64,000 bases of DNA from Candidatus Parcubacteria bacterium. GTDB lineage: Bacteria > Patescibacteriota > Minisyncoccia > Sungbacterales > SURF-37. The stretch covers positions 22,140-86,139 of the forward strand of contig QZJO01000009.1 of NCBI GenBank assembly GCA_003599755.1. Reading direction: 5' to 3'. Below, one piece after another: positions 1,403 to 57,764 of this stretch. Both the position numbers and the translations under genes were made by a program. Every line of letters begins with the position of its first letter. Positions within the stretch are counted from its first letter, which is position 1. The notes beneath the pieces were generated by a model, which worked only from the letters and a program-made list of their open reading frames with translations, was not told where the DNA came from and searched no databases.

Positions 1403-4252
<2,850 letters not shown>

Positions 4253-4800
4253 GGCATGGTAGTGTACTGCCAATCGGACGCGGGTTCAAGAGTGAACGGC
4301 ATCCGCCCTAGACGGATGCCGTTTCAGATGTCTGGAGCGCGCGACCGCATGGCCATCGCGCTATTCGTGGCGATTGAACGCCCGCGCCACCCGGGCAACC
4401 GGAACGCCATTGCGGCGCATCGCGACAAGCCGGCTATAACGATGCCGCAGCCGCGTCAGGTGCGACGCGCCTCCTCCGACGGCGAAGTCCTCCACGTCCC
4501 GGATCGCATCCGCAAGAAACGTACCATTCCTTCCCTCCCCGCACACGATCAGGGCGACCAGGATCTGCTGATCCAGCGGAATCGTTCGAAGCCGGAGCCC
4601 TGGTTCTTGATGGCCCTCCCGTGAACGCCGCGTTCGTTTCGGCATTGTCGCCTCCTCTCGGTTTACGATCTTATACGGGTATATCTGCCACACCGGATCC
4701 CAGCGCCGCACGGCTCAACCGCCGATGTATATGGGAACCTTCCGTTCCTTTGCAACGGTTATACTATACGCTAGACAATGGAAGCCGCACATTCAATTCT

Positions 4801-14281: not shown

Positions 14282-14847
14282 TGGCCGTTTTGCGCCAAAA
14301 GTTTTTCGATCACCGGTTCAACCTGCGCCTCGAGTTCAGCCACCGTGCCGTTGTTCTGAAATAGGTAGTCCGCCATCTTGATACAGGCGGCGATATTTTG
14401 CTGATATGGCTCGGGATTTTGCATTTCGCGCTCCTCGTCAGCCATAAATTTCTCGAACGATACGCGGTCGGTTTCGCTCTGGCGCGCCACGATGCGCTCG
14501 TAGCGGATCTTCGGATCGGCGTCCACGGCAAAAAGTATGAAATCTCCTTTGGCGCGCAGGGATTCCACTTCCGCGGTGGCGCGCAGGGATTCGATAATAG
14601 TATTCTTGCCGCTTGCTTTTGCCTGTTCGTAGAGCGCCTCGGCAATGTAGTTTGGCCCGTTTTTCATGCGCAGATCATTCGCCGTCGCGGTCATGATATC
14701 GCGATCCACATCCAACCCGCGGCGCTTGATCTCATCCACGATCAGATCGCGCGCGGAAAAATGCGCGAAGCCGTGCTCGCGGATAAGATAATCGACGATC
14801 GTTCCTTTTCCCGCGCCGAGCGTCCCGGTAATGCCGATGATACGCAT
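14278..14847 (-). CDS. P-loop nucleotide/nucleoside monophosphate kinase-like protein (AAA_18 or dephospho-CoA-kinase-like)
   Basis: N-terminal Walker A IGITGTLGAGKGT. Start placed at MRIIGITG. The substrate is unknown. Confidence 0.55.
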   Translation of the reverse strand: MRIIGITGTLGAGKGTIVDYLIREHGFAHFSARDLIVDEIKRRGLDVDRDIMTATANDLRMKNGPNYIAEALYEQAKASGKNTIIESLRATAEVESLRAKGDFILFAVDADPKIRYERIVARQSETDRVSFEKFMADEEREMQNPEPYQQNIAACIKMADYLFQNNGTVAELEAQVEPVIEKLLAQNGQ

Positions 14848-28636: not shown

Positions 28637-28685
28637 CCGCAGTTTGCTGTTCTACTTTTTGTTTACGGTGCTATCGTCCGCGCAC

Positions 28686-28712
28686 CATTCCATCATTCGC
28701 GCGAATTAGAAA
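28686..28712. promoter_or_regulatory. Palindromic element ATTCCATCATTCGCGCGAATTAGA, copy 1
   Basis: Perfect 12-bp palindrome ATTCGCGCGAAT about 50 nt upstream of the DUF1905 gene start. A near-identical copy sits at 29418-29444. Confidence 0.5.
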
Positions 28713-29332: not shown

Positions 29333-29417
29333 TGTTACCCGCTATTTCTTATAAATCCGAGATAAAACTGCTATGGAATTATTGTGGGTCGTGGATTGTG
29401 TTAATTTCTATTTCTAC

Positions 29418-29444
29418 TATTCCATTATTCGCGCGAATTAGACA
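29418..29444. promoter_or_regulatory. Palindromic element ATTCCATTATTCGCGCGAATTAGA, copy 2
   Basis: Same 12-bp palindrome about 95 nt upstream of the hydrolase gene start. Confidence 0.5.
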
Positions 29445-30132: not shown

Positions 30133-30214
30133 ACGCCTCCTTGAAAGAGCATTTTTTTGTCTCGAGAGCTATTTTCTATTATATTATATTTATATAAATA
30201 GTCAAGTCTATCCT

Positions 30215-30310
30215 CGCATTCTCAAGAATGTTGGAATGTTCCTGTCCCCTGCTTCGGATCTGTGGATTCTCGGGGCGGCGGCGATGGAGGCGTCGAGGTT
30301 TTTGATGGTG
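30215..30310. repeat. Island repeat R3
   Basis: CATTCTCAAGAATGTTGGAATG ... CTGTCCCCTG ... GGGGCGGCGGCGATGGAGGCGTCGAGG is about 85 % identical to R5. Confidence 0.6.
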
Positions 30311-30446
30311 GATTTCTATGAATTGGTCGAGCCTGCGTTATTGCCTAGGACTAGGAATGTGCAGAAAATACTGTGTTTCAGAGCTTGGGTTGAAAATAAC
30401 CATAAATCCTAGTACCATTGAAACAGAAGAGTCGTTATGCCGTCAG

Positions 30447-30940: not shown

Positions 30941-31055
30941 TCCGGTTTATTCTGATGTTCCTAAGAAGATCGGAATAAATGGAGATGGGCGGAAGATGGA
31001 TGATCGGATCTTTTGTGGGTTTGCGGGGCGGCGGCGATGGAGTTTATGCTGCTTC
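30941..31055. repeat. Island repeat R4
   Basis: TCCGGTTTATTCTGATGTTCCTAAGAAGATCGGAATAAATGGAG...GGGGCGGCGGCGATGGAG combines the R1-type 5' part with the R3/R5-type 3' part. Confidence 0.6.
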
Positions 31056-31506: not shown

Positions 31507-31625
31507 GACATTCTCACATTCTCAAGAATGTTGGAATGTACTCGTTTCCTGTGGCCTGTCCCCTGTTCTGGGCTGGTGGGTTTGCGGGGCGGCGGCGATG
31601 GAGGCGTCGAGGGGTTTAAGGGGCG
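31507..31625. repeat. Island repeat R5
   Basis: CACATTCTCAAGAATGTTGGAATG...CTGTCCCCTGTTCTGG...GGGGCGGCGGCGATGGAGGCGTCGAGGGG. Confidence 0.6.
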
Positions 31626-32018
31626 GATTTTATGGTTGCTGCCAAAGTGGGACGAGTTCCGAACGATAAAGTGGGATGAAATGTTCGAATTTCCTAGCGT
31701 TTCTCTCGACCAGATGCAGAAATTGCTTGCGCTCCAGTGATGCCGGATCAACATTCGAACCGGCTATTAGTTGAAACTGGCAGAGCAACGCTGCTGGTAT
31801 TTTGTAGTAATGAATGATAATGCCAGCGTGTTAGTATTTGCATTCACAATCTTCGCCATTATAGTCACTCTGTTTTTGCTGCCATCGGTTTTTGGACTCT
31901 ACGCTACGCGCCAACCGTGGCGATTTGAAGAATGGTGCCTCGGCGTTTACGGTAAAGAACGATGTGAACGAGAGCGCCATCTTCTCCGGTGGGAGTTTTC
32001 TGAATTTCAGTAAAAGAT

Positions 32019-32911: not shown

Positions 32912-33763
32912 CTATCTGGCAGCAATAGTGCGAGGCACATTTAAACCAGAACTGAAAAAGAGGATCTCTTTGCCCACTCGTGGTCCGCGCGCAGTATGCA
33001 AAAGATGGTGACGCTTTGATCTAAGACCGGCATAAATCTTTCGAATCTCGGCATGATCATCGTAGGAAACAATCCACCTCACCCCTTTGATGCTTCTTAC
33101 TACTTTACCGACGGCTACATGGTCATCCTTGTCGTAATGGTTCATGTATAAAGACTCGCCTTTTAGATAGTACGGAGGGTCAAGGTAGAATATTGTTTTT
33201 TTGTTCTCTAACCTCCTCGCAATTTTCCGAACTAAATCCATTGCGTCCATATGTTTGACATGGATTTTGCTTTTATGCTTGGCAATTTTCTTTATGCGCT
33301 TTATCAGCTCCTTTTTGTTGAAGCGACAATTCAGCTTGTACTCGCCCGTCTGATGAATATTCCCGATAGGGCCTCCGTTGAGAATCCCCGAGACATTTGT
33401 TCTATTCAGGAAGAAAGTAGCAAAGCCGAGCTTAAGCAAAGGTTCGTTCTCTTTATTTTGAAGAATCGCGCGCTGCCTCTTCCATGTTGTAATATTTACC
33501 CGTGTCGCGCGGATGAGTTTTATCAACTCTTCCGAGCGGTGAACTGCGGAGTACCAAAAAGCATAAATAGCCCTATCCTTATCGTTTATTGTTATCTCTG
33601 AAACGTACCCCTCAAACAAAAGGTGGAGAGCCACAGATGCACCTCCGGCATACGGCTCTACATAATGTCCGTTGATATCGTTGCGCTCACAGATTTTTGC
33701 AATAAACTTTGCGAGCTCATTTTTTCCTCCCGGATATCGAAGCGGTGAATAAAATTTTTTCAT
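32912..33763 (-). CDS. dam: DNA adenine methyltransferase (Dam/D12 class, N6-adenine)
   Basis: N-terminal LRYPGGK (motif I/FxGxG region) and DPPY catalytic motif. Confidence 0.85.
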   Translation of the reverse strand: MKKFYSPLRYPGGKNELAKFIAKICERNDINGHYVEPYAGGASVALHLLFEGYVSEITINDKDRAIYAFWYSAVHRSEELIKLIRATRVNITTWKRQRAILQNKENEPLLKLGFATFFLNRTNVSGILNGGPIGNIHQTGEYKLNCRFNKKELIKRIKKIAKHKSKIHVKHMDAMDLVRKIARRLENKKTIFYLDPPYYLKGESLYMNHYDKDDHVAVGKVVRSIKGVRWIVSYDDHAEIRKIYAGLRSKRHHLLHTARGPRVGKEILFFSSGLNVPRTIAAR

Positions 33764-35136
33764 GACAACTTGTTTGTGTCTAAGCTGCTCAGGAGATCGT
33801 TCGGCTCTTGCAGCATAAACTCGATCAAGGGTATCAGATTCTCGCCTTGTGTTCTCGCATCACTCGCGGACGCGCCTACCTTATAATTATGCACTACTTG
33901 ATGTAGCTTTTCGAGGTCGAATCCACGGAAAGCGTTTTTTGTACCAGTGTCGGTGATCAGCTCGGTAAATTTTTCTTTTAACACGGCAAAGTTGGTGTAA
34001 GTGTTTCTCCTACCATGCCTGTCGTAGAAGGCGGAATGAAAATTGTTGTACGATGCAAGCTCCTTATTTTTGTATTTCGTCTCCGCAACAACATATTTCA
34101 GCACGGCCTCAAATGTAACACGAACAAGAGCAACCTTCGCGTTCGCAAACTGCGAGTTGTCGAGGTTATAACATTCGTTAACGAGGCGCTTTAATTTCGG
34201 TGCAACTTGTTTCCGCTCATACGCCGGTCGTGTCTTTACGGATCCTCTTTTACCCGGAGTGATTGGCGTAGTTGTTGGGAGAGATGTGGGCGTTGTACCT
34301 TGCTCGACCTCTGCTTTCGGCAGTTCTTTTGGCGTAAAGCCATGGGTAGACAACCTCTTGAGAAAATCCCCGTGTTCGTGATCCACATCACCATGTGAGG
34401 TTTTAGGCTTAGCGTTAAGATATGCAACGAGGGCGCTGATATACGAAGTAAACTGCGCTTGATCTAGTATCTCGATAACGTATGCAGGCTTGCCCTTGAA
34501 CTGATAGCCGCACTGCTTACTGTACGCAAACAGACGTTCAAAAATAATGGTTTTGCCACCGGCGTTCCCTTTTCCACGACGCAACAATTTCTTTAGGTCT
34601 TCTTCTCCAATCTTTACAGCCTCGTAGTAGAAGCTAGCGAGCTTAATGAGCCGCGATGGGTTTGAGTCGATCTCGCGTATTACTTCTTCTGAGGAACCGG
34701 ATTGGTGCATTTCGTACGCTTTGAGGGCTTTTGCAATCGGATCCCATTCCCTAAAGAGGCTATGCATGTGCTGTTCTTGGATGCGTCGATCAAGCTCTTT
34801 CTCGTCGCGGTACACCAGCACAGGTAGCTGTTTTATATCTACCTTTGCGAGCTCAAGCCCGTACTTCCTTTGGTTACGTAGGGCTTTGACGGCCGCACAT
34901 CTGCGATTACCATCGCGCACAAGAAAATTCTTGCCTTTTGGCACAACCCACAAAGCTTGATCTGGGTAGAAATAACCACGATCAGAGATATTCTTTGCCA
35001 CTTCTTCAGCCGCCTCTGTATAAAGTAGGTATTCAACAAGATCTTCCTCTCTTCCGCTGCCACTATAAAGCTCTGCGAACCTATGATTATTAGGATCGAG
35101 TATGAGCTGAGTTATATTCTTATATTCGATTTTCAT
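33760..35136 (-). CDS. ParB N-terminal-domain protein (458 aa), translationally coupled to dam
   Basis: ILDPNNHRF ... LVRDGNRRCAAVKAL resembles the ParB NPxQPR and GERRxRA boxes. It overlaps the dam start by 4 nt. Confidence 0.55.
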   Translation of the reverse strand: MKIEYKNITQLILDPNNHRFAELYSGSGREEDLVEYLLYTEAAEEVAKNISDRGYFYPDQALWVVPKGKNFLVRDGNRRCAAVKALRNQRKYGLELAKVDIKQLPVLVYRDEKELDRRIQEQHMHSLFREWDPIAKALKAYEMHQSGSSEEVIREIDSNPSRLIKLASFYYEAVKIGEEDLKKLLRRGKGNAGGKTIIFERLFAYSKQCGYQFKGKPAYVIEILDQAQFTSYISALVAYLNAKPKTSHGDVDHEHGDFLKRLSTHGFTPKELPKAEVEQGTTPTSLPTTTPITPGKRGSVKTRPAYERKQVAPKLKRLVNECYNLDNSQFANAKVALVRVTFEAVLKYVVAETKYKNKELASYNNFHSAFYDRHGRRNTYTNFAVLKEKFTELITDTGTKNAFRGFDLEKLHQVVHNYKVGASASDARTQGENLIPLIEFMLQEPNDLLSSLDTNKLS

Positions 35137-35186: not shown

Positions 35187-38027
35187 TTATGCGCTACTGG
35201 AAGCCGTCGTACGCTTGTAAGCGCTATGTGCTCGCACAGATTTTGTTTTTACCGCTTCACGACCCACATAAACCCCGTATAGCCCAAAAAGAAATTCGAG
35301 ACGTTCCGCTTCCGTTTTGAATGAACGCTTGCCGTAGCAGGCATCAACTGCACGATCGAGCGCGCGATGTGCTTCGAGAAGTTTCAGCGGCATGGTTTCG
35401 GGATTGTAGAGATCAGCGAGCGTGGCGTTCGGGAATTGTTTTCTAGCATCAAGCACGGACTGCGCCGCTTGCTCTACTTTTTCTTTTTGCTCTTTCGTAG
35501 GATTTTCCGGCCATGGAAAGTTGTTATATACGATATCTTTTGAATAACGGTAGTCGGACTTGAGACGGCCGGCTACGGCTCGGACCCATGTCATATGCAT
35601 TTCGCTTTGAAGAACGCCGAAGTGATAGAGAGAGGCGTTAGGAACGATCTTCAAAAGATTGCTGGCAAGCGTATCCGGTTCGATAAAGCCAATTGGAATA
35701 TAATGCCGCCGCTCAGATGAAACTTCTGGTATGACTAAATATGTATCCTTCGGCATATTCTCCACATGGAATCGCGTCGGCGTTTCCGCTAATTTTCGTG
35801 TCGGAGCGCTTTTGCTCAAGCGACGGAATTCAGCTACCGCCTGAATGCGTCGAAGTACTTCAGGCATGGCCGCAATTTCTTCGGGCGCGGCGTCGCCGAG
35901 CCAGAGACACCAGCGTTCATATCCGTTCAGAAATTCATCAGCGCCGATCCAGCGCTTAAAGAATTTTTCTGCCTTCGGTTCTTTTTCAAGAAATGCTTCT
36001 TTTTCTTCTGGTGTGAAAAGATAGAGTCCCCCATCGATCGGTTTATTGCCAATTCCGATTTCCGGAACGTCCGCAATCGGCTTGCCTCGACTTTCAACCA
36101 GTACATTTGGTGCATCCACGAGATATGCATTAATCTGCTGCGCCAGAATCTCGTGCGGTTCACTGCGGATATCCGCATATTCATAAATACGGGGGCGTGG
36201 GTGCGGGGACGTGCCAAACCCGATAATGACGCAGTAGACCGCAGCTTTGCCCGGCGCTTCATTGCTCCATTTGAACGTCCGATGGGCAAAATGAATCTTG
36301 ATTCCCCGTTGATTGAGGAGCCGCCACAGCACAGCGACCTGTTCGCCCTGGGTAATCGAGTTTGTTGAGACAAAGGCACAGGCGATAGCCGTTCCTTGAA
36401 TGTATGCTGATGCCTTGGCGTACCAGCCACAGACGAAATCGAGCGTCCCGGATCCTGGCGCATTTTGAAAAAGATCCGTGATTTCCTTCCGCTGCGTATC
36501 GGACATAAGCTTCGAGCCGACGAAGGGCGGATTGCCGAGGACGTAGGTCAATTGTGATTTCGGTACGGCACTTTCCCAGTCGAGTGTGAGTGCATTATCT
36601 TCAACGATGTGCGGCTGTTCTGTGAGTGGGAGTTTGGCAAACGGCCTTCCGAAGTGGTCGCCAAGCTCGGTATTCGCAATGTGATCAGCGAGCCAAAGCG
36701 AGAGCCGGGCAATGGCCGCTGGAAATGATTCTATCTCAATGCCGAACATGCGTTCGATGGAAAGCTTCGAAATTTTCGTAATATCAAATGTTCCGGGCGC
36801 TTCACTTCCCCTGCGGATATCTTCTACTTTTTCCGCGTAGAACCGTTTGATGATCTCGAGTTCAATCCGGCGGAGTTCGCGATACGCTACCACAAGGAAA
36901 TTCCCGCAGCCGCAAGCCGGGTCAAGAAGCGCTATTGCCGCAATTTTGTTCCATAGGCGATCGAGTTTTGCATGGCTCGTACCGGCATCAGCGAGTTCTT
37001 TATGGAGATCATCGAGAAAAAGCCCGCTGATGACTTTTAGAATATTCTTTTCGGACGTATAGTGCGCTCCCAGATCATGGCGCGCTTTTTCATCCATCAC
37101 TGATTGGAACATGGATCCGAAGATGGCCGGCGATATTCCGGACCAGTCGAAGGACATACAACTCAAAATATTCTCGCGGATACTGACGGTGCCGAATACG
37201 GAAGATAGATGCTCAGCGAACAGGCCACCATTCACGTATGGCAAAGCGGCTAAATCTTCATCGAGCGTCGTCTGACGCTTTTCGATGGGCGTATTGAGAA
37301 CCTCGAATATCGCTCCGAGATGATAGCCGATATCCGAACCATCAATCTCGGTTCTATCCTCCAAGTACATTTTGAACGAGTCGCGATTGAAAATTCCGGT
37401 ATCATCAGCAAAAAAGCAGAATACCAGACGGGTGAGGAGTGTGCTTATTTCATTGGGTGGATAGTTTGATGCGCGGAGCGCGTCATAGAGCTTCCCGATC
37501 GCGCTTACCGCTTTGATCGTAATCGGGCTTTCTTCTTTGTAGGTTCTCGTCTGGAATCCGAGGATAAACGCAAAGCGACGGACGTGCTTGGGAAAATCCG
37601 AAAGCAGGCACTGGAATTGCTCGATTCCGTTTTCACCCTCTAGATCATAGAGACGGATAAGGATGAAGTTTGAAACAATGATGTAGCGCGGTTTTTCTTC
37701 TTCGGGAAGCGCATCAAAGTACGACCCCGCTTGGTCATAGGCACTGTCAAGATTTTCGCCGACCGATTTATGCTCGACAATGAGGACTCCAGGCCAAAAG
37801 AGATCAATAAAACCAGTATTTCCCTTCAGCCGTTTTACGTGCTGTTGATAGCGCGCAACGGTTCTTCGGCGGATACCAAATACCTCGAAAAATTCATTCC
37901 AAAAAGAAGCGTACTCCGCTTCTCGCTCTTCATTTTCCCATTCACGGGCGAATTGCACCGCGCGGTTCCGAATTTCGTTCCAGTTCAGCATGCACGTTTC
38001 TAATGCAGTTTCTGCCGATAAAATCAC
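35187..38027 (-). CDS. Type IIL restriction-modification enzyme, MmeI family (single-chain nuclease, methyltransferase and target-recognition)
   Basis: N-terminal PD-ExK region with FWNEFFEVFGI...GFIDLFWPGVLIVEHKS matches the MmeI-family signature. The central gamma-class N6-adenine MTase motifs are NPPF (LGNPPFVGSK) plus a SAM-binding segment. 946 aa, ~48 % GC. Confidence 0.8.
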   Translation of the reverse strand: MILSAETALETCMLNWNEIRNRAVQFAREWENEEREAEYASFWNEFFEVFGIRRRTVARYQQHVKRLKGNTGFIDLFWPGVLIVEHKSVGENLDSAYDQAGSYFDALPEEEKPRYIIVSNFILIRLYDLEGENGIEQFQCLLSDFPKHVRRFAFILGFQTRTYKEESPITIKAVSAIGKLYDALRASNYPPNEISTLLTRLVFCFFADDTGIFNRDSFKMYLEDRTEIDGSDIGYHLGAIFEVLNTPIEKRQTTLDEDLAALPYVNGGLFAEHLSSVFGTVSIRENILSCMSFDWSGISPAIFGSMFQSVMDEKARHDLGAHYTSEKNILKVISGLFLDDLHKELADAGTSHAKLDRLWNKIAAIALLDPACGCGNFLVVAYRELRRIELEIIKRFYAEKVEDIRRGSEAPGTFDITKISKLSIERMFGIEIESFPAAIARLSLWLADHIANTELGDHFGRPFAKLPLTEQPHIVEDNALTLDWESAVPKSQLTYVLGNPPFVGSKLMSDTQRKEITDLFQNAPGSGTLDFVCGWYAKASAYIQGTAIACAFVSTNSITQGEQVAVLWRLLNQRGIKIHFAHRTFKWSNEAPGKAAVYCVIIGFGTSPHPRPRIYEYADIRSEPHEILAQQINAYLVDAPNVLVESRGKPIADVPEIGIGNKPIDGGLYLFTPEEKEAFLEKEPKAEKFFKRWIGADEFLNGYERWCLWLGDAAPEEIAAMPEVLRRIQAVAEFRRLSKSAPTRKLAETPTRFHVENMPKDTYLVIPEVSSERRHYIPIGFIEPDTLASNLLKIVPNASLYHFGVLQSEMHMTWVRAVAGRLKSDYRYSKDIVYNNFPWPENPTKEQKEKVEQAAQSVLDARKQFPNATLADLYNPETMPLKLLEAHRALDRAVDACYGKRSFKTEAERLEFLFGLYGVYVGREAVKTKSVRAHSAYKRTTASSSA

Positions 38028-38334
38028 ATATTTGCTGTATTAAATCAAGAGCTCCCGCAAACCAATATGCAGTTGCATGAATTTGGCGGTTTACTTAAAA
38101 ATCTTGGAATATTTAAACCAACGAGGACTACCGCAGCTTACGGTAGTCCTCGAAGCCTCAAAAATTATTTTTTTCTCGAGGGTTTTGTATCGCCGTGTCC
38201 CGGTTTCGGAACTCTCTCTACGACATGCGTGTCGGGATAGCGACGCGCTTTCTTCACGGTCGTAAATTCGCCGTTGCGAGCATCCCGGCCACGAAGAGTA
38301 GTTTTTGAGTCCTTACTCATTACGGTTATGGACG

Positions 38335-38607
38335 CTAGAACGTCCTGCCGCGAAGCCAGGTCAATCCCTCCTGGTCATCTATTCGTCCCCACCACTCTCT
38401 CGTCAAGCCAAAAACGATGAGTTCGTCATTGCGATCGAGATGAGGGGCGAGGCGATCATAGATCTGCTGTGCGCTCAGTGAGGTATCAACGAGCCATACG
38501 GACGTGGTGTGATGCCACCACGATCCAGAAAGGCTTCGAATCGCTTCGTGAAGAGAGCTGTAATCGCGTCCCGGTGAGTGAAGAGTATAGGAGATGATGT
38601 GAATCAC
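38335..38607 (-). CDS. Hypothetical 90-aa protein
   Basis: ORF only. A 51-aa basic ORF follows at 38166-38320. Confidence 0.35.
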   Translation of the reverse strand: MIHIISYTLHSPGRDYSSLHEAIRSLSGSWWHHTTSVWLVDTSLSAQQIYDRLAPHLDRNDELIVFGLTREWWGRIDDQEGLTWLRGRTF

Positions 38608-38830
38608 CTGTTCTCAGATACTGTTGATAGCTGGAAACTGCCGCTGATATGATGGATGCACAGTAAGCGCGCCAATCGACCGGGAGTCAAACTGAAGGCC
38701 ATCATACCATTTCGTTTGATTCCGCTTGGTTGCCTGCGGTACTCAGCTTCAGTGCCCACAAAAACCGCCGCATGGCGGTTTTTGTCGATTCTAAAGAAAT
38801 ATATTTATGCGTACGTCAGGGAGGGGCATA

Positions 38831-39211
38831 TTAATTTAAATCTTTCAGGGAAATACTTTTGACCACGCTACCGTGATAAACTTTTCTCCTGTAATACAAG
38901 GCTAATCCGAGGAATAGGACGGTCAGCGTCGTAAAAACGCAGGCGCTCCACCAAAGAGCGAGCGGCTGGGAGGGCTCAATGGCGTAAGCAGTCCAGAAAC
39001 CGACTGCAATAGGTGCAATAAGCGCTACGAGCCATTGGAACAACTCGTAATGTCTAAGTTCATTCGCTTGCACAAGTTCCATGCCGATTTCATCGGGGAA
39101 TCGGACGGTTACTCTTGTTTGCCGCCCTATATGGGGAGCTGATTTATTATCAGAAGATTCTTCTTTTATGCGCCCGTTCTTCATCTTCGATCGGGATAAT
39201 TTGGTAATCAT
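38831..39211 (-). CDS. Small membrane protein downstream of lexA, candidate SOS-induced toxin
   Basis: Basic N-terminus followed by two TM helices (FQWLVALIAPIAVGFW ... CVFTTLTVLFLGLALYY). It either overlaps the lexA 3' end by 62 nt or starts at ATG 39082. Confidence 0.4.
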   Translation of the reverse strand: MITKLSRSKMKNGRIKEESSDNKSAPHIGRQTRVTVRFPDEIGMELVQANELRHYELFQWLVALIAPIAVGFWTAYAIEPSQPLALWWSACVFTTLTVLFLGLALYYRRKVYHGSVVKSISLKDLN

Positions 39212-39839
39212 CCATCCGTTCGACCTGAATCACCTGAATAACCTTTCCGAATATTTGGAAGTCCCGCCGTAGAATTATGGCTTTATGCTCGGAGTCCGAG
39301 GTAACTGGGGTGAGTACGATGGCATTATTGCCGAATGCGATTTTCTTAATCACGGCATTGTCGTCGATAATGGCAACGACGATATCTCCGGTTTGAACAT
39401 TCTGCGTCATTTCGGTAAGAACGAAATCGCCGTCGTGGATTCCGGCATCTTCCATCGACGAACCGACCGCTCGGATAACATAAACATTTTCACGGCCGGA
39501 GATCAGGCTCGCGGCCACGGGGATATATTCGTCGAACTGCCGGTCGGCAATCACGCTCGGACTGCCACACCCTGCGGAGGCGAATACTGGCACCTGCAAG
39601 ATTTCCTCGCGAGCTGGATCATCTTCGACAATTTGTATACCGCGGCGGGAAAACCGACCTCGTCGAATTAGCCCTTTACTTTCGAGTGCTTTCAAGTACT
39701 GGGTCACTGACCGAATGCTTTTGGCGCCGACTGCCTTTCCGATTTCAGCCAAAGTAGGTGCTTCTCCCCTCTGGGCAAGACATGCCTTAATAAAATCGTA
39801 AACGCATCGCTGATTTGCCGTGAGCAGAGCCGGTTTCAT
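39150..39839 (-). CDS. lexA: LexA-family repressor (S24 peptidase) with an extended C-terminal tail
   Basis: wHTH N-terminus, an Ala-Gly cleavage-site region (ASAGCG), Ser (GSSM) and Lys (IKKI) catalytic dyad context, and a ~40-aa extra C-terminal extension. Confidence 0.8.
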   Translation of the reverse strand: MKPALLTANQRCVYDFIKACLAQRGEAPTLAEIGKAVGAKSIRSVTQYLKALESKGLIRRGRFSRRGIQIVEDDPAREEILQVPVFASAGCGSPSVIADRQFDEYIPVAASLISGRENVYVIRAVGSSMEDAGIHDGDFVLTEMTQNVQTGDIVVAIIDDNAVIKKIAFGNNAIVLTPVTSDSEHKAIILRRDFQIFGKVIQVIQVERMDDYQIIPIEDEERAHKRRIF

Positions 39840-39847
39840 CGGGAGTA

Positions 39848-39884
39848 ATTATAGCATCCACCTTTTCGCATTGCAAGATCCACC
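39848..39884 (-). promoter_or_regulatory. Predicted sigma70-type promoter of lexA
   Basis: On the lexA strand: -35 TTGCAA, 17-nt spacer, -10 TATAAT ending 9 nt before the ATG, so the transcript is probably leaderless. GGTGGAT direct repeats flank the -35 box. Confidence 0.45.
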
Positions 39885-39911
39885 ATATCCTACCCAGCCG
39901 CCCAAGGCTAC

Positions 39912-40361
39912 TTACCTCCTCCGCTCCTCCCACTCCGGCACGTCTTCGCCAACAATATAGAAAAAATGGAATGCGCCGGTGGGGCCGATCCAGCGAAAGG
40001 TTTTGACCAGGATCGCGCGGCGCTTGGCGTAGGGCAGCTTCCTGATGGAACGGATGAAAGCGGCAAAGGAGCCGTGCTCTTTTTGCAGGCCCTGGATGAT
40101 GCGCGCGTTTTCTATTGTGCCGCGGATCTTCGCGCCGTTCCTAATAATGCCCGGATCGGCGAGCAAGCGCAGAACGTCACGCGCGCCCATCTTCGCCACT
40201 TTCTGAACATTGAAATTATGGAATGCCTTTCGGAAATGCGGCCACTTGTTGCGCACGACTTCCCAGGAAAACCCCGCCTGGAATACGGATTGCGCCAGCG
40301 CTTCAAGATAGCCGTTGTCGTCCTTCGGGCGCTTGGGCGTGGGAATGTAGTAGTCGTACAT
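39912..40361 (-). CDS. tag: DNA-3-methyladenine glycosylase I
   Basis: Full-length similarity to Tag, including a conserved aromatic/Glu core (FHFFYIVGED...). Confidence 0.75.
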   Translation of the reverse strand: MYDYYIPTPKRPKDDNGYLEALAQSVFQAGFSWEVVRNKWPHFRKAFHNFNVQKVAKMGARDVLRLLADPGIIRNGAKIRGTIENARIIQGLQKEHGSFAAFIRSIRKLPYAKRRAILVKTFRWIGPTGAFHFFYIVGEDVPEWEERRR

Positions 40362-40404
40362 AGCCGTATTGTTCGCCGTTTGAACTCCCTATTCGCAGCA
40401 TCAT

Positions 40405-40426
40405 CCAAACCAAAACCGCCCGCAAG
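40405..40426. repeat. 22-nt exact repeat CCAAACCAAAACCGCCCGCAAG, copy 1
   Basis: An identical 22-mer is found at 41233-41254. Both lie upstream of minus-strand transcription units. Confidence 0.6.
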
Positions 40427-40430
40427 CTCT

Positions 40431-40472
40431 AAAAAAACAACCCGCCCCGGCGCATGCGAGCGCGCGGGGCGG
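40431..40472 (-). terminator. Rho-independent terminator on the minus strand
   Basis: On the minus strand the hairpin CCGCCCCGCGCGCTCGCATGCGCCGGGGCGG is followed by TTGTTTTTTT. It lies downstream of the small membrane gene 40540-40677. Confidence 0.6.
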
Positions 40473-40539
40473 TGGCTTTTCGTCCACGAAGGTACTGCTC
40501 TGACTGGTGCAGAACCAGCGCGTGGCTAGGCTGCCGGCA

Positions 40540-45739: not shown

Positions 45740-45760
45740 TCGCCCACCGCCCGCACGGAA

Positions 45761-45795
45761 GCCCGCCGTGCATCGCGGCGGGCTTCTTCTTTTTC
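45761..45795 (+). terminator. Hairpin plus GGCTTCTTCTTTTT terminator
   Basis: GCCCGCCG-TGCATCG-CGGCGGGC followed by TTCTTCTTTTTC. Confidence 0.55.
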
Positions 45796-45801
45796 GCCTT
45801 C

Positions 45802-45831
45802 TTGACGTCCCTGGCCGGCATGCTTAGCTGG
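45802..45831 (+). promoter_or_regulatory. Conserved promoter module P2 (TTGACG-N16-TGCTTAGCTG)
   Basis: Same architecture as P1, P3 and P4. It is followed by ~430 nt with no convincing ORF, then a conserved terminator. Confidence 0.5.
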
Positions 45832-46267
45832 AGTCAGCGATTCCCCTTAAACAAAATCGTGCGTCAGCGACAATCCGTGGGACGGGTCGTGCCTGGAAGT
45901 ACACGCGTAACGACACAGCGCTATACTGCGCTGGGACCCGAGTAATCACTCGGCGAACACCCACCGCCGTGACGGGGCTCATCCTGGGAATCGCCCCAGA
46001 CGCAACGCAGCATGTAAATCGCGGCAGGCATGTGACGGTAGAGAGGGTGACCTATCGCCGTACTCGGAGAATCCTCACGGAGGCACGGGCTGATGCTCGT
46101 CGCTGCTGACGCACGAGGTCAATTGCGAGCTAACCGGCTCGCATCGCTGTGGCGCAGGCGTCGGAAATTACGCTGGCCTGATAGTATAGTGAGGGGCTCA
46201 TCCACCCTCTCCCTTCCTGGTCAGGTCCGCGGACTTGCCGCCGGCGCTTGCGCCACACTCGATCACC

Positions 46268-46296
46268 GCCACCTAGCAGAGGTGGCGGCTTCTTTT
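46268..46296 (+). terminator. Hairpin plus GGCTTCTTTTG terminator
   Basis: GCCACCT-AGCAG-AGGTGGC followed by GGCTTCTTTTG. Confidence 0.5.
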
Positions 46297-46303
46297 GCTC
46301 TTC

Positions 46304-56514: not shown

Positions 56515-56901
56515 TTAGCGGCCGGAGCGACGCATGACCGCGCGGCCGATGTTTGTTATGGCATACAATGTCAGCGCCCATCCGACGAACAGGGCGGTGA
56601 GCTGAAATACGGAATTACTCGTCGCGAAGTTGGAAACGAGCGACCAATAGCGGATTCCGATCGCGCCGCCATAAATCGCGGCAGCCGCGAGGATAAGCCA
56701 AAACGCATGATACCACGCTAAACCCAAAAGCCCGATCGCGAAGCCCAAAAGCGCTCCGGCAGCCAAAAACCCATAGACGAACGCCGAGGCCCATCCCGCG
56801 CTTTCCAGGGGGATCAGCGCAAGCACCGCCAGTGCCGCGCCGGCCAAGATTACGGCCGTGCCGAGCGCAATGGTGATTGCGCGCTTCGATGAGTTAGTCA
56901 T
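56515..56901 (-). CDS. Hypothetical polytopic membrane protein (128 aa)
   Basis: Four TM helices. Overlaps the fba stop by 4 nt. Confidence 0.45.
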   Translation of the reverse strand: MTNSSKRAITIALGTAVILAGAALAVLALIPLESAGWASAFVYGFLAAGALLGFAIGLLGLAWYHAFWLILAAAAIYGGAIGIRYWSLVSNFATSNSVFQLTALFVGWALTLYAITNIGRAVMRRSGR

Positions 56902-57764
56902 ATGCGATCCATTGCTCCGAATAATTTCAGCTTTTCTTCGATCACTTTAGCCATAGTTTGCTCCGCTTCGCGATAAAGCTTGTACGGCGTCGTCTCGTCC
57001 GGATGCTCGGATAAATCCTGGCGCAGGCCCCGCACAAACGCCACTCGGAGTTCCGTATTGACGTGGATATTCGCGATGCCCGCCGCGATCGCCGCTTTGA
57101 TTTGATCCTCGGGAATGCCCGATCCGCCATGCAGCACGAGCGCCACCGATTCGGGCACGCGCGCGCGTACGGCGCGGATGCGCTCGATATCGAGCGCGGG
57201 CTCGTCCAGGGCGATGCCGTGCGAGTTGCCGACCGCCGGCGCAAGACGATCCACGCCCGTCTCGGCGACGAAATGCTCGGCCTGATCCGGGTCGGTCAGA
57301 TCTTCGGGTTTGATCTCGATTTTTTCCTTTTGCAATTTCGACTCGCCGCGTAAATACCCCAGCTCTCCTTCCACGACCACGCCGGCGTTTTTTGCGCGCG
57401 CGTAGATCACGACCTCTTTCGTACCGGCCAGATTCTCCGCGAACGGCTTTGCAGACAGATCGATGTGCACCGAATCGTACCCCGCGTCTACCGCCGCTTT
57501 GGCCGTCTCGACGGATTTGGAATGATCAGCATTGAGAAACACCGGAATGCCAAACTCATGGCGGAGTGCCGAACGCAGCGCCACGGCTTCGGCAAGTCCC
57601 ATGTGGTCGCGCTCGCCTTCGGAAGTGCCGATCATGGCCGGACTTTTGAGATCCCGGCATACGCGGCAAATCACCCGCATCTGCTCAAGATTCGACGCGT
57701 TGAAATGGCCGACGGCCCAGCCCTCGGTCCTCGCGCGCTTCAAAATATCGGATAGCGATTCCAT
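56898..57764 (-). CDS. fba: Class II fructose/tagatose-bisphosphate aldolase
   Basis: Metal-binding His motifs (LHGGSGIP, HVNTE) of class II aldolases. Confidence 0.8.
   Translation of the reverse strand: MESLSDILKRARTEGWAVGHFNASNLEQMRVICRVCRDLKSPAMIGTSEGERDHMGLAEAVALRSALRHEFGIPVFLNADHSKSVETAKAAVDAGYDSVHIDLSAKPFAENLAGTKEVVIYARAKNAGVVVEGELGYLRGESKLQKEKIEIKPEDLTDPDQAEHFVAETGVDRLAPAVGNSHGIALDEPALDIERIRAVRARVPESVALVLHGGSGIPEDQIKAAIAAGIANIHVNTELRVAFVRGLRQDLSEHPDETTPYKLYREAEQTMAKVIEEKLKLFGAMDRI

Follow-up and report, generated by a model that had tools for sequence, protein, structure and literature searches.

A lexA gene and a gene for a predicted two-helix membrane protein in a putative operon beside a low-GC defence island of a Parcubacteria genome

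The lexA locus and its promoter

We analysed a 64,000-nucleotide (nt) stretch of a Candidatus Parcubacteria bacterium contig, hereafter the window, and within it a lexA gene and the small gene directly behind it, here termed ORF2 (open reading frame 2). Both genes are located on the minus strand. The lexA gene (39150..39839) encodes 229 amino acids (aa). ORF2 (38831..39211) encodes 126 aa when read from its first ATG, and 117 aa when read from a likelier start at 39184 (MKN...). The 3' end of lexA and the 5' end of ORF2 overlap by 35 nt (39150..39184) with the second of these starts and by 62 nt (to 39211) with the first. An intrinsic terminator on the same strand (38758..38785), with a 12-bp stem ACAAAAACCGCC-AUGC-GGCGGUUUUUGU, closes the arrangement. 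Its predicted folding energy is -29.2 kcal/mol (z = -3.9), and the terminator scan reports the same hairpin on the plus strand. A promoter scan of positions 38000-40500 yielded no promoter-like site from the lexA start to that of ORF2 and no opposite-strand promoter within ORF2 upstream of 38831. An Rfam search gave no RNA match. The overlap of the two genes together with the terminator after ORF2 indicates that they form one two-gene operon.

The lexA product was characterized by profile searches and by alignment to Escherichia coli LexA structures. It contains a LexA_DNA_bind domain (PF01726, E = 1.8e-15) followed by a Peptidase_S24 domain (PF00717, E = 5.3e-22), and it scored 139.1 bits against the NCBIfam LexA equivalog model TIGR00498, for which the cut-off is 110.95 bits. 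An earlier note on this DNA had named the protein LexA, and these matches bear the name out. The E. coli structures aligned with the window LexA end to end, placing S128 and K165 at the positions of the catalytic residues S119 and K156. In the linker, A89-G90 is directly followed by C91-G92, and the latter pair aligned to the E. coli scissile bond A84-G85. Throughout the clade alignment G90 is invariant and A89 is present in at least 90% of the rows; Cys-Gly is the cleavage site of UmuD. Its close homologues share 43-67% identity with it, are 219-235 aa long, and come exclusively from Parcubacteria or allied lineages, and the database entry for the identical protein reads "repressor LexA [Candidatus Parcubacteria bacterium]". 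The copy at 39150-39839 is the sole lexA of the window, which contains no recA.

The earlier note had further described a tail of about 40 aa after the S24 domain. The actual tail is 25 aa long when counted from residue 204, the last one aligned to E. coli LexA (which has 6 aa beyond that point), and 28 aa long when counted from the end of the Pfam S24 match. Its first half is conserved in the clade: all close homologues have a tail with the conserved start VE.xDDYQIVP and a variable end. Because this motif is common to the close homologues, the tail is a clade trait and not peculiar to the window copy. AlphaFold2 modelled the tail with low confidence (predicted local distance difference test, pLDDT, 48-58), and its last ~12 variable residues are encoded within the stretch that overlaps ORF2. 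Judged by these comparisons, the protein is a bona fide Parcubacteria-type LexA, typical of its clade and already annotated as such.

A promoter was recognized immediately upstream of lexA (39848..39876, minus strand), with a -35 element TTGCAA (39876-39871), a 17-nt spacer, and an extended -10 element TGcTATAAT (39856-39848) in which TATAAT occupies 39853-39848. This is the promoter that the earlier note had pointed out, and 8 nt (TACTCCCG) separate it from the lexA ATG. These 8 nt contain no Shine-Dalgarno (SD) sequence, and the predicted mRNA leader is 0-2 nt long. We classified a start as leaderless when a -10 element lay within ~10 nt of the ATG and no SD sequence was present. For comparison, 80 lexA loci from species-representative genomes were kept (labelled L001-L080), 76 of them with sufficient upstream sequence. 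TANNNT was found 5-9 nt before the lexA ATG in 55 of the 76, among them 38 with a distance of exactly 6 nt, and a single one of the 76 had an SD-like 4-mer upstream. Promoters of this leaderless type recur elsewhere in the window, before uvrA, before groES, and before the genes at 56898 and 61038, with starts at 57764 and 62030; SD sequences are seldom seen there. Since the geometry recurs across the clade and at other operons of the window, it is not special to this lexA. The suggestion in the earlier note that the mRNA is probably leaderless thus agrees with the geometry, whereas its presentation as a peculiarity does not stand. A leaderless lexA mRNA appears well supported, as a kind of start common to many operons in this lineage. 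At uvrA, the promoter TTGAAC-N17-TACACT (4252-4330, minus strand) ends 8 nt before an ATG at 4252, which is the true start of the gene; the ORF listing begins 7 codons early, at a TTG.

A candidate operator in the lexA promoter

According to the earlier note, lexA is flanked by GGTGGAT direct repeats. Two copies are present, and both are situated in the promoter instead of flanking the gene. The first (39878..39884, minus strand) abuts the -35 element. It is the counterpart of TTGTATAT, which abuts TTGCAAT in locus L134, and is also position-equivalent to the GTGGAT/GTGTAT units of L001 and L004. The second (39856..39862, minus strand) abuts the extended -10 element, with which it has a T in common, and is the counterpart of AGTGTATAT before TATAAT in L134. 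A degenerate unit GTAGGATAT (39885..39893, minus strand) lies 9 nt in front of the copy at the -35 element. It is supported by a GGAT-N5-GGAT match at 39878-39890 and aligns with the first tandem unit of L134, L001, and L004. In the direction of transcription these are candidate operator units 1 (GTAGGATAT), 2 (at the -35 element), and 3 (at the -10 element).

The closest relative that also has an ORF2 homologue is L134, and the three-unit layout is common to the window, L134, L001, and L004. With a slash marking the border between repeat and promoter element, the L134 promoter reads TGTGTATAT-ATTGTATAT/TTGCAAT ... AGTGTATATGA/TATAAT-7-ATG, and that of the window reads GTAGGATAT-GGTGGATCT/TGCAAT ... 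GGTGGATGC/TATAAT-8-ATG. Expectation-maximization on the 76 lexA upstream regions produced a clade motif in the form of a direct repeat with period 9 (TTGTRTATATTGTRTATA, 17 bits). When the resulting matrix was scanned over 1.4 million positions (both strands, ~0.7 Mb), 152 of the 179 hits above 12 bits fell no more than 200 nt upstream of lexA. As LexA almost always represses its own gene, we infer that this motif is the LexA operator of the clade, and we read TGTRTAT as the consensus of its 9-bp repeated unit and GTGGAT as a tolerated unit variant. GTGGAT or mixed GTGGAT/GTGTAT units occupy the equivalent promoter positions in L001 and L004, and in these two loci, as in the window and in the Kaiserbacteria group, GTGGAT stands in place of GTRTAT at matching positions. 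Many other lexA promoters have a unit TGTGGATAA beside their TGTRTAT units.

The window lexA promoter itself scored only 2.3 bits against the clade matrix. A canonical LexA box at this gene was rejected on that score and replaced by positional homology; with so low a score, the operator assignment depends on that homology and on tolerance of a G in place of T at a single position of the unit. The matrix scan detected no canonical LexA box anywhere in the 64-kb window (maximum 8.8 bits), and no operator-like site was found at the uvrA gene of the window. Across the window, GTGGAT forms two pairs with a spacing of 2-24 nt, compared with 0.10 expected by chance; the second pair (14704-14739) lies within a coding region. 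GGTGGAT overall is over-represented, with 18 copies observed against 6 expected, mostly in coding sequence.

A search for GGTGGAT before other genes of the island described below was among the checks proposed in the earlier note, which had also suspected LexA control of the restriction-modification genes. Only the lone copy at 30307 is plausibly placed, 4 nt before a DUF4258 gene, and it is part of a separate repeated element; another lone copy, at 46200, lies in a long non-coding stretch. None was convincing. The GGTGGAT, pair, and matrix scans of the window showed no operator-like repeat before the MmeI-type or PD-Lambda-5 genes, which leaves LexA control of restriction-modification without support.

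The reverse complement of TGTGGATAA is TTATCCAC, the core of the DnaA box. In 607 kb of sequence, 47 of the 77 occurrences of TTATCCAC fall no more than 250 nt upstream of lexA, in either orientation, and this share ties the element to lexA instead of marking it as general. At the Parcubacteria lexA promoters (L001-L080, near position 4001 in most of these loci), TTATCCAC may represent a variant LexA half-site or the site of a second factor.

The ORF2 protein and its family

In the NCBI annotation, ORF2 is an 83-aa protein starting at M44, and this start cuts into a conserved segment. Homologues have the conserved segment upstream of the position of M44, where they carry an Ile. The true start is accordingly M1 or, likelier, M10 at 39184, the latter because an MKN... 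start is common among homologues. The protein consists of a variable polar N-terminus, the conserved segment T.V.V.FPD.I.IELVQANELRHYE, two transmembrane helices, and a basic tail YRRKVYHGS. The hydrophobic segments (approximately residues 57-78 and 84-106) are separated by a short outside loop, and AlphaFold2 modelled them as a helical hairpin with pLDDT >90. The charge distribution suggests a topology with both termini inside. The two-helix protein that the earlier note had placed directly downstream of lexA is therefore confirmed by the hydrophobic segments and the hairpin model, with predicted co-transcription with lexA.

The same note had likened this protein to toxins of the TisB/DinQ type, and here the analysis disagrees. 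The type I toxin systems TisB/IstR-1 and DinQ/AgrB of E. coli involve LexA-controlled hydrophobic membrane peptides of 27-29 aa with a single helix, whereas ORF2 encodes 117-126 aa with two helices and a conserved soluble segment. TisB and DinQ are each expressed from a separate promoter under LexA control and paired with an antisense RNA; ORF2 uses the lexA promoter, and no antisense partner was seen. Neither the size and helix number typical of the class (below ~40 aa, single transmembrane helix) nor its regulation (own promoter with antisense RNA) is found in ORF2, which further has residues invariant across phyla and no detectable homology to a named toxin.

Profile searches returned 262 clusters for the ORF2 family at E ≤1e-3 and 83 at E ≤1e-10, all of ~100-150 aa, and their alignment revealed strong residue-level conservation across phyla. 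ORF2 had no match in Pfam, NCBIfam, PADLOC, or PHROGs, nor in viral contigs, phages, or plasmids. Ten distant family members compared with Pfam yielded hits at noise level only, such as Holin-X, whose E was never below 0.003. A Foldseek comparison of the ORF2 model with PDB retrieved generic helical hairpins only, all with E >1.

Look-ups of single homologues and a metagenome scan provided 39 distinct ORF2 loci that extend far enough upstream of the gene for comparison. In 17 of them the neighbour of ORF2 is a LexA-domain gene, encoding a canonical LexA in 7 and a LexA-methyltransferase fusion in 10. The canonical lexA is upstream on the same strand in the window, L003, L004, L094 (Woesebacteria), L105, L134, and L138. 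In L138 a 154-aa ORF intervenes between the two genes; in L003, L004, L094, L105, and L134 the ORF2 homologue is directly 3' of lexA, and in relatives the two genes overlap by up to 23 nt or are separated by a few nt at most. The next gene after the ORF2 homologue encodes an M23 peptidase in both L003 and L094, a faint hint of a cell-wall connection.

In the 10 fusion loci, LexA is fused to an N4/N6 DNA methyltransferase (447-624 aa) and transcribed divergently from the ORF2-family gene. Fusion genes are located, on the minus strand and in locus coordinates, at L083:2021-3523, L090:1368-2819, L095:41-1384, L104:1968-3842, L122:2531-3919, L130:974-2515, and L139:2384-3967. The fusion proteins keep a complete LexA (helix-turn-helix, Ala-Gly, Ser, and Lys), and the intergenic regions between fusion and ORF2 contain ACCGAA direct repeats ~11 nt apart and one TGTGGATAA/TTATCCACAG element. 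The gene before ORF2 is a restriction-modification component (HsdS or D12 methylase) in 5 of the 39 loci, and two HsdS-type loci that have no adjacent lexA carry LexA-box-like sites before ORF2 (15.7 bits in L132 and 10.1 bits in L131). Another 6 loci have other contexts.

The remaining 11 of the 39 loci have a toxin-antitoxin pair before ORF2, an HTH_3-Panacea antitoxin with a RelE-like protein. In these Panacea loci a RelE-like gene of 112-114 aa, overlapping the antitoxin gene, lies between the HTH_3-SocA_Panacea antitoxin and ORF2. The RelE-like gene is the direct partner of the antitoxin, and the idea that ORF2 is a Panacea-neutralized toxin was dropped as the main reading; no Panacea gene was detected in the window. 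We also set aside TTATCCAC before the Panacea operons as independent evidence, since the whole promoter is conserved among these related elements and the presence of TTATCCAC there is of little independent weight.

Taken over these neighbourhoods, the tie of ORF2 to LexA-domain regulators and to methylation or restriction genes is strong but not exclusive. New at this locus are the mis-annotation of ORF2, its membership in a conserved unnamed family, and the recurrent link of that family to LexA-type regulators, including methyltransferase fusions.

Some further arrangements were observed around lexA. In L001 (4617-6159, Liptonbacteria), lexA overlaps a gene for a different membrane protein of 178 aa, followed by a gene for a 333-aa protein that is nucleotidyltransferase-like by eye only; this may be another arrangement of LexA plus effector. 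In the window, two small genes on the minus strand separate the lexA operon from the MmeI-type gene. The product of 38335-38607 (90 aa) has a match to phrog_1090 and a homologue with 62% identity encoded immediately behind lexA in L002. For the product of 38165-38320 (51 aa), a match with 74% identity lies downstream of lexA in L062. By these matches, both genes may belong to the lexA neighbourhood.

Origin and proposed function of the lexA-ORF2 pair

The GC content of the window falls from ~0.60 in the flanks to 0.43-0.50 over ~28.6-39.9 kb. GC content at third codon positions (GC3) is 0.53 for lexA, 0.49 for ORF2, and 0.52 for the MmeI-type gene, compared with 0.74 for tag, the adjacent gene upstream of lexA, and 0.77-0.78 for uvrA (0.78) and the cell-wall genes. 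These values place the compositional step inside the 72-nt gap between tag and lexA, which holds the lexA promoter. The claim of the earlier note that lexA is island-encoded is in line with these numbers. A PD-Lambda-5 pair (32912-35136, minus strand) is part of the island, with gene A at 33760-35136 and gene B, a methyltransferase, at 32912-33763. It adjoins a complete MmeI-family type IIG restriction-methylase gene (35187-38027, minus strand), and a DUF4258/DUF2283 pair and several unknowns make up further cargo. Deviant composition and defence cargo, as looked for in a defence island, are thus both present. No integrase or recombinase was found among the scanned ORFs, no tRNA at either island edge, and no credible boundary repeat.

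Relatedness of the proteins was also compared. The named UvrA relatives are all Sungbacteria (66-71% identity), whereas the named LexA relatives come from other Parcubacteria lineages and none is Sungbacteria, nor does any record title among the 80 genome lexA loci name that group. In a neighbour-joining tree the window LexA grouped with L134, L004, L003, L002, L001, L005, and L006. The GC3 step, the island cargo, and the taxonomic discordance between UvrA and LexA favour, without proving, lateral acquisition of the lexA-ORF2 pair. One metagenome-assembled genome contains two lexA genes, L004 (CAZYEL010000015.1, of the window subclade and with ORF2) and L040 (CAZYEL010000021.1, with a canonical operator and without ORF2); the two copies may be true paralogues or may have been brought together by erroneous binning.

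Three other features of the window were recorded. An element of ~110 nt recurs within the island with 76-83% identity. Its full copies (30210-30320 and 31510-31634) both have an ATG at their end and contain TTCTCAAGAATGTTGGAATGTTCC and a GC-rich GGGGCGGCGGCGATGGAGGCGTCGAGG, and the first of them runs into the DUF4258 gene; a further, partial copy occupies 31015-31042. A 27-nt direct repeat (28684-28710 and 29416-29442, 93% identity) brackets a gene for a 208-aa hydrolase-like protein at the low-GC left edge. Between two terminator-like GC hairpins, ~540 nt (45760-46300) contain no convincing ORF and no Rfam match at the gathering threshold, and may be an unrecognized structured RNA.

We consider it fairly probable that lexA and ORF2 are a self-contained two-gene operon that arrived with or beside the low-GC defence island, is repressed by LexA, and has ORF2 as its effector. 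Its mRNA would be leaderless, as also appears to hold for lexA clade-wide and for other operon-first genes here. LexA would repress its own promoter through the GTGGAT units set against the -35 and -10 elements, at the very positions of the consensus TGTRTAT units in the nearest relative, holding both genes low until it cleaves itself, presumably on RecA filaments after DNA damage. The ORF2 product would then act as the effector of the switch, an inner-membrane hairpin with its ends and most conserved segment in the cytoplasm and with a specific partner. The role that we consider likeliest is that of a division or envelope-synthesis brake, similar to the small lexA-adjacent membrane proteins of Gram-positive species. 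An effector of growth arrest or abortive infection would be less likely; the residue-level conservation of ORF2 across phyla ranks the brake slightly above it.

Known systems resemble this arrangement in part. SOS-induced division inhibitors adjoin lexA in Firmicutes and Actinobacteria, are poorly conserved between groups, and are recognized by synteny (PMC6851548). YneA of Bacillus subtilis, SosA of Staphylococcus aureus, ChiZ of Mycobacterium tuberculosis, and DivS of Corynebacterium glutamicum are, like the ORF2 product, small membrane proteins encoded beside lexA, and LexA control is expected in all cases. SidA of Caulobacter was also included in this comparison of lexA-adjacent or SOS membrane division inhibitors. 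The YneA/SosA/ChiZ/DivS proteins have one transmembrane helix, an extracellular C-terminus, and often a LysM domain, and their genes are divergent from lexA. The ORF2 product has two helices, both ends predicted to be cytoplasmic, and no LysM, and its gene is on the same strand as lexA; the family is divergent only in the LexA-methyltransferase loci. Sequence similarity between ORF2 and this class is absent.

Repressor genes at the head of the operon they control are familiar from other settings. The lexA2-imuA-imuB-dnaE2 cassettes of Proteobacteria have an extra or laterally spread lexA as first gene of an operon that it represses, and so form self-contained units. Those cassettes carry error-prone polymerase genes, whereas that of the window carries one membrane protein. 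In lambda cI-rexA-rexB, a leaderless self-cleaving S24 repressor is co-transcribed with a membrane-acting exclusion function. The window differs from it in having a cellular-type LexA and not a phage cI, no prophage genes nearby, and no viral homologues. Patescibacteria LexA has reportedly been a subject of comparative genomics. The window LexA is like the LexA proteins of Patescibacteria and Parcubacteria in domain order, Ser/Lys pair, linker Ala-Gly, length, and tail motif, and its gene is like theirs in the repeated-unit self-promoter and leaderless layout. It departs from that norm as a compositional outlier, in GTGGAT for GTRTAT, and in sharing an operon with a membrane protein.

Several observations weigh against a LexA-repressed operon with ORF2 as a division or envelope brake. 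The recognition helix of the window LexA (SIRSVTQYL) agrees with the clade consensus, which leaves a changed operator specificity unexplained, and the promoter has the low matrix score reported above. The missing operator-like site at uvrA leaves a wider regulon unproven, and the TTATCCAC/GTGGATAA element is DnaA-box-like and could bind another factor. The conserved parts of ORF2 are predicted to be cytoplasmic, whereas YneA and SosA act via an extracellular tail. ORF2 follows lexA directly in only 2 of the 80 species-representative lexA loci and elsewhere follows toxin-antitoxin or restriction genes, which makes it an accessory gene and not part of a core SOS response. Its defence-island company and patchy distribution further argue for the role that we rank as less likely, an arrest or abortive-infection effector.

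Among the alternatives, the one that survives best is that this is an ordinary housekeeping LexA with a standard SOS regulon elsewhere, that ORF2 is a chance neighbour, and that the low GC content stems from an island inserted beside lexA. The protein indeed passes the equivalog model, and its length, tail, and catalytic residues, like the layout of its promoter, are those usual for the clade. There is one lexA in the window, and the 80 retained loci include just one from each of the five other subclade genomes in the genome scan (L001-L003, L005, and L006). The GC3 of lexA contradicts this explanation, being far from that of tag, 72 nt upstream, and of the core genes, as does the presence of Sungbacteria among all named UvrA relatives and no named LexA relatives. 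The adjacency of lexA and ORF2 is not accidental, given that the genes overlap and the pair recurs in different lineages. A standard regulon is also at odds with a uvrA that has no operator-like site and a window that has no canonical LexA box. We regard this explanation as rather unlikely.

A mobile kill or arrest switch triggered by damage is, in our judgement, unlikely as well. The ORF2 product would in that case be a membrane-depolarizing or holin-like effector of an abortive-infection or addiction module, comparable to lambda cI-rexA-rexB, and would be set free when LexA is cleaved in response to phage attack or to damage from self-restriction. The pair does adjoin PD-Lambda-5 and a type IIG restriction enzyme, and the family occurs beside restriction-modification components, toxin-antitoxin pairs, and LexA-methyltransferase fusions. 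The distribution of ORF2 is patchy, composition points to a lateral origin, and the protein has two transmembrane helices and a basic C-terminus. The searches of PADLOC, PHROGs, viral contigs, phages, and plasmids nevertheless gave no match, the holin hits were at noise level, and Panacea-type loci pair the antitoxin with a RelE-like protein and not with ORF2. Strong residue conservation across phyla would also be unusual for a non-specific membrane toxin.

It is quite improbable that the GGTGGAT repeats are not LexA sites but degenerate DnaA-box-like elements (TTATCCAC) for DnaA or another factor, or chance promoter matches: the DnaA-box core does stand in either orientation beside TGTRTAT repeats, without replacing them, in many lexA promoters, it recurs in intergenic regions whose likely operator is the ACCGAA repeat, and GGTGGAT is over-represented in the window generally, mostly in coding sequence, but most TTATCCAC copies are found at lexA, GTGGAT takes the place of GTRTAT position for position in the window as it does in L001, L004, and the Kaiserbacteria group, and the two copies set exactly against the -35 and -10 elements have the look of repressor sites.

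The self-contained, LexA-repressed operon that we favour could also be seen in a wider frame, which we put forward as speculation that is unlikely to hold in full. The two-helix family, which belongs to the candidate phyla radiation, would be a common output of LexA-type switches travelling with restriction-modification and other defence genes, the window pair would be a mobile, self-regulating cassette connecting damage to the membrane and not housekeeping SOS, and a Sungbacteria-like host may lack any other LexA. In that frame, the switch would take the form of a canonical LexA sharing the operon in some genomes, among them that of the window, and of a divergent LexA-methyltransferase fusion in others.

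To our knowledge, almost nothing has been learned experimentally about the stress responses of the ultra-small uncultured Patescibacteria. If our inference fails, the locus would be a correctly annotated LexA beside a hypothetical protein. If it is true, the locus would provide three parts of their DNA-damage response, namely an operator of repeated units in which GTGGAT is a natural variant of GTRTAT, a clade-wide leaderless lexA, and a family of candidate membrane effectors that no database names. The recurrent pairing of this family with LexA-methyltransferase fusions and restriction genes is a hint of a link between damage sensing and defence islands.

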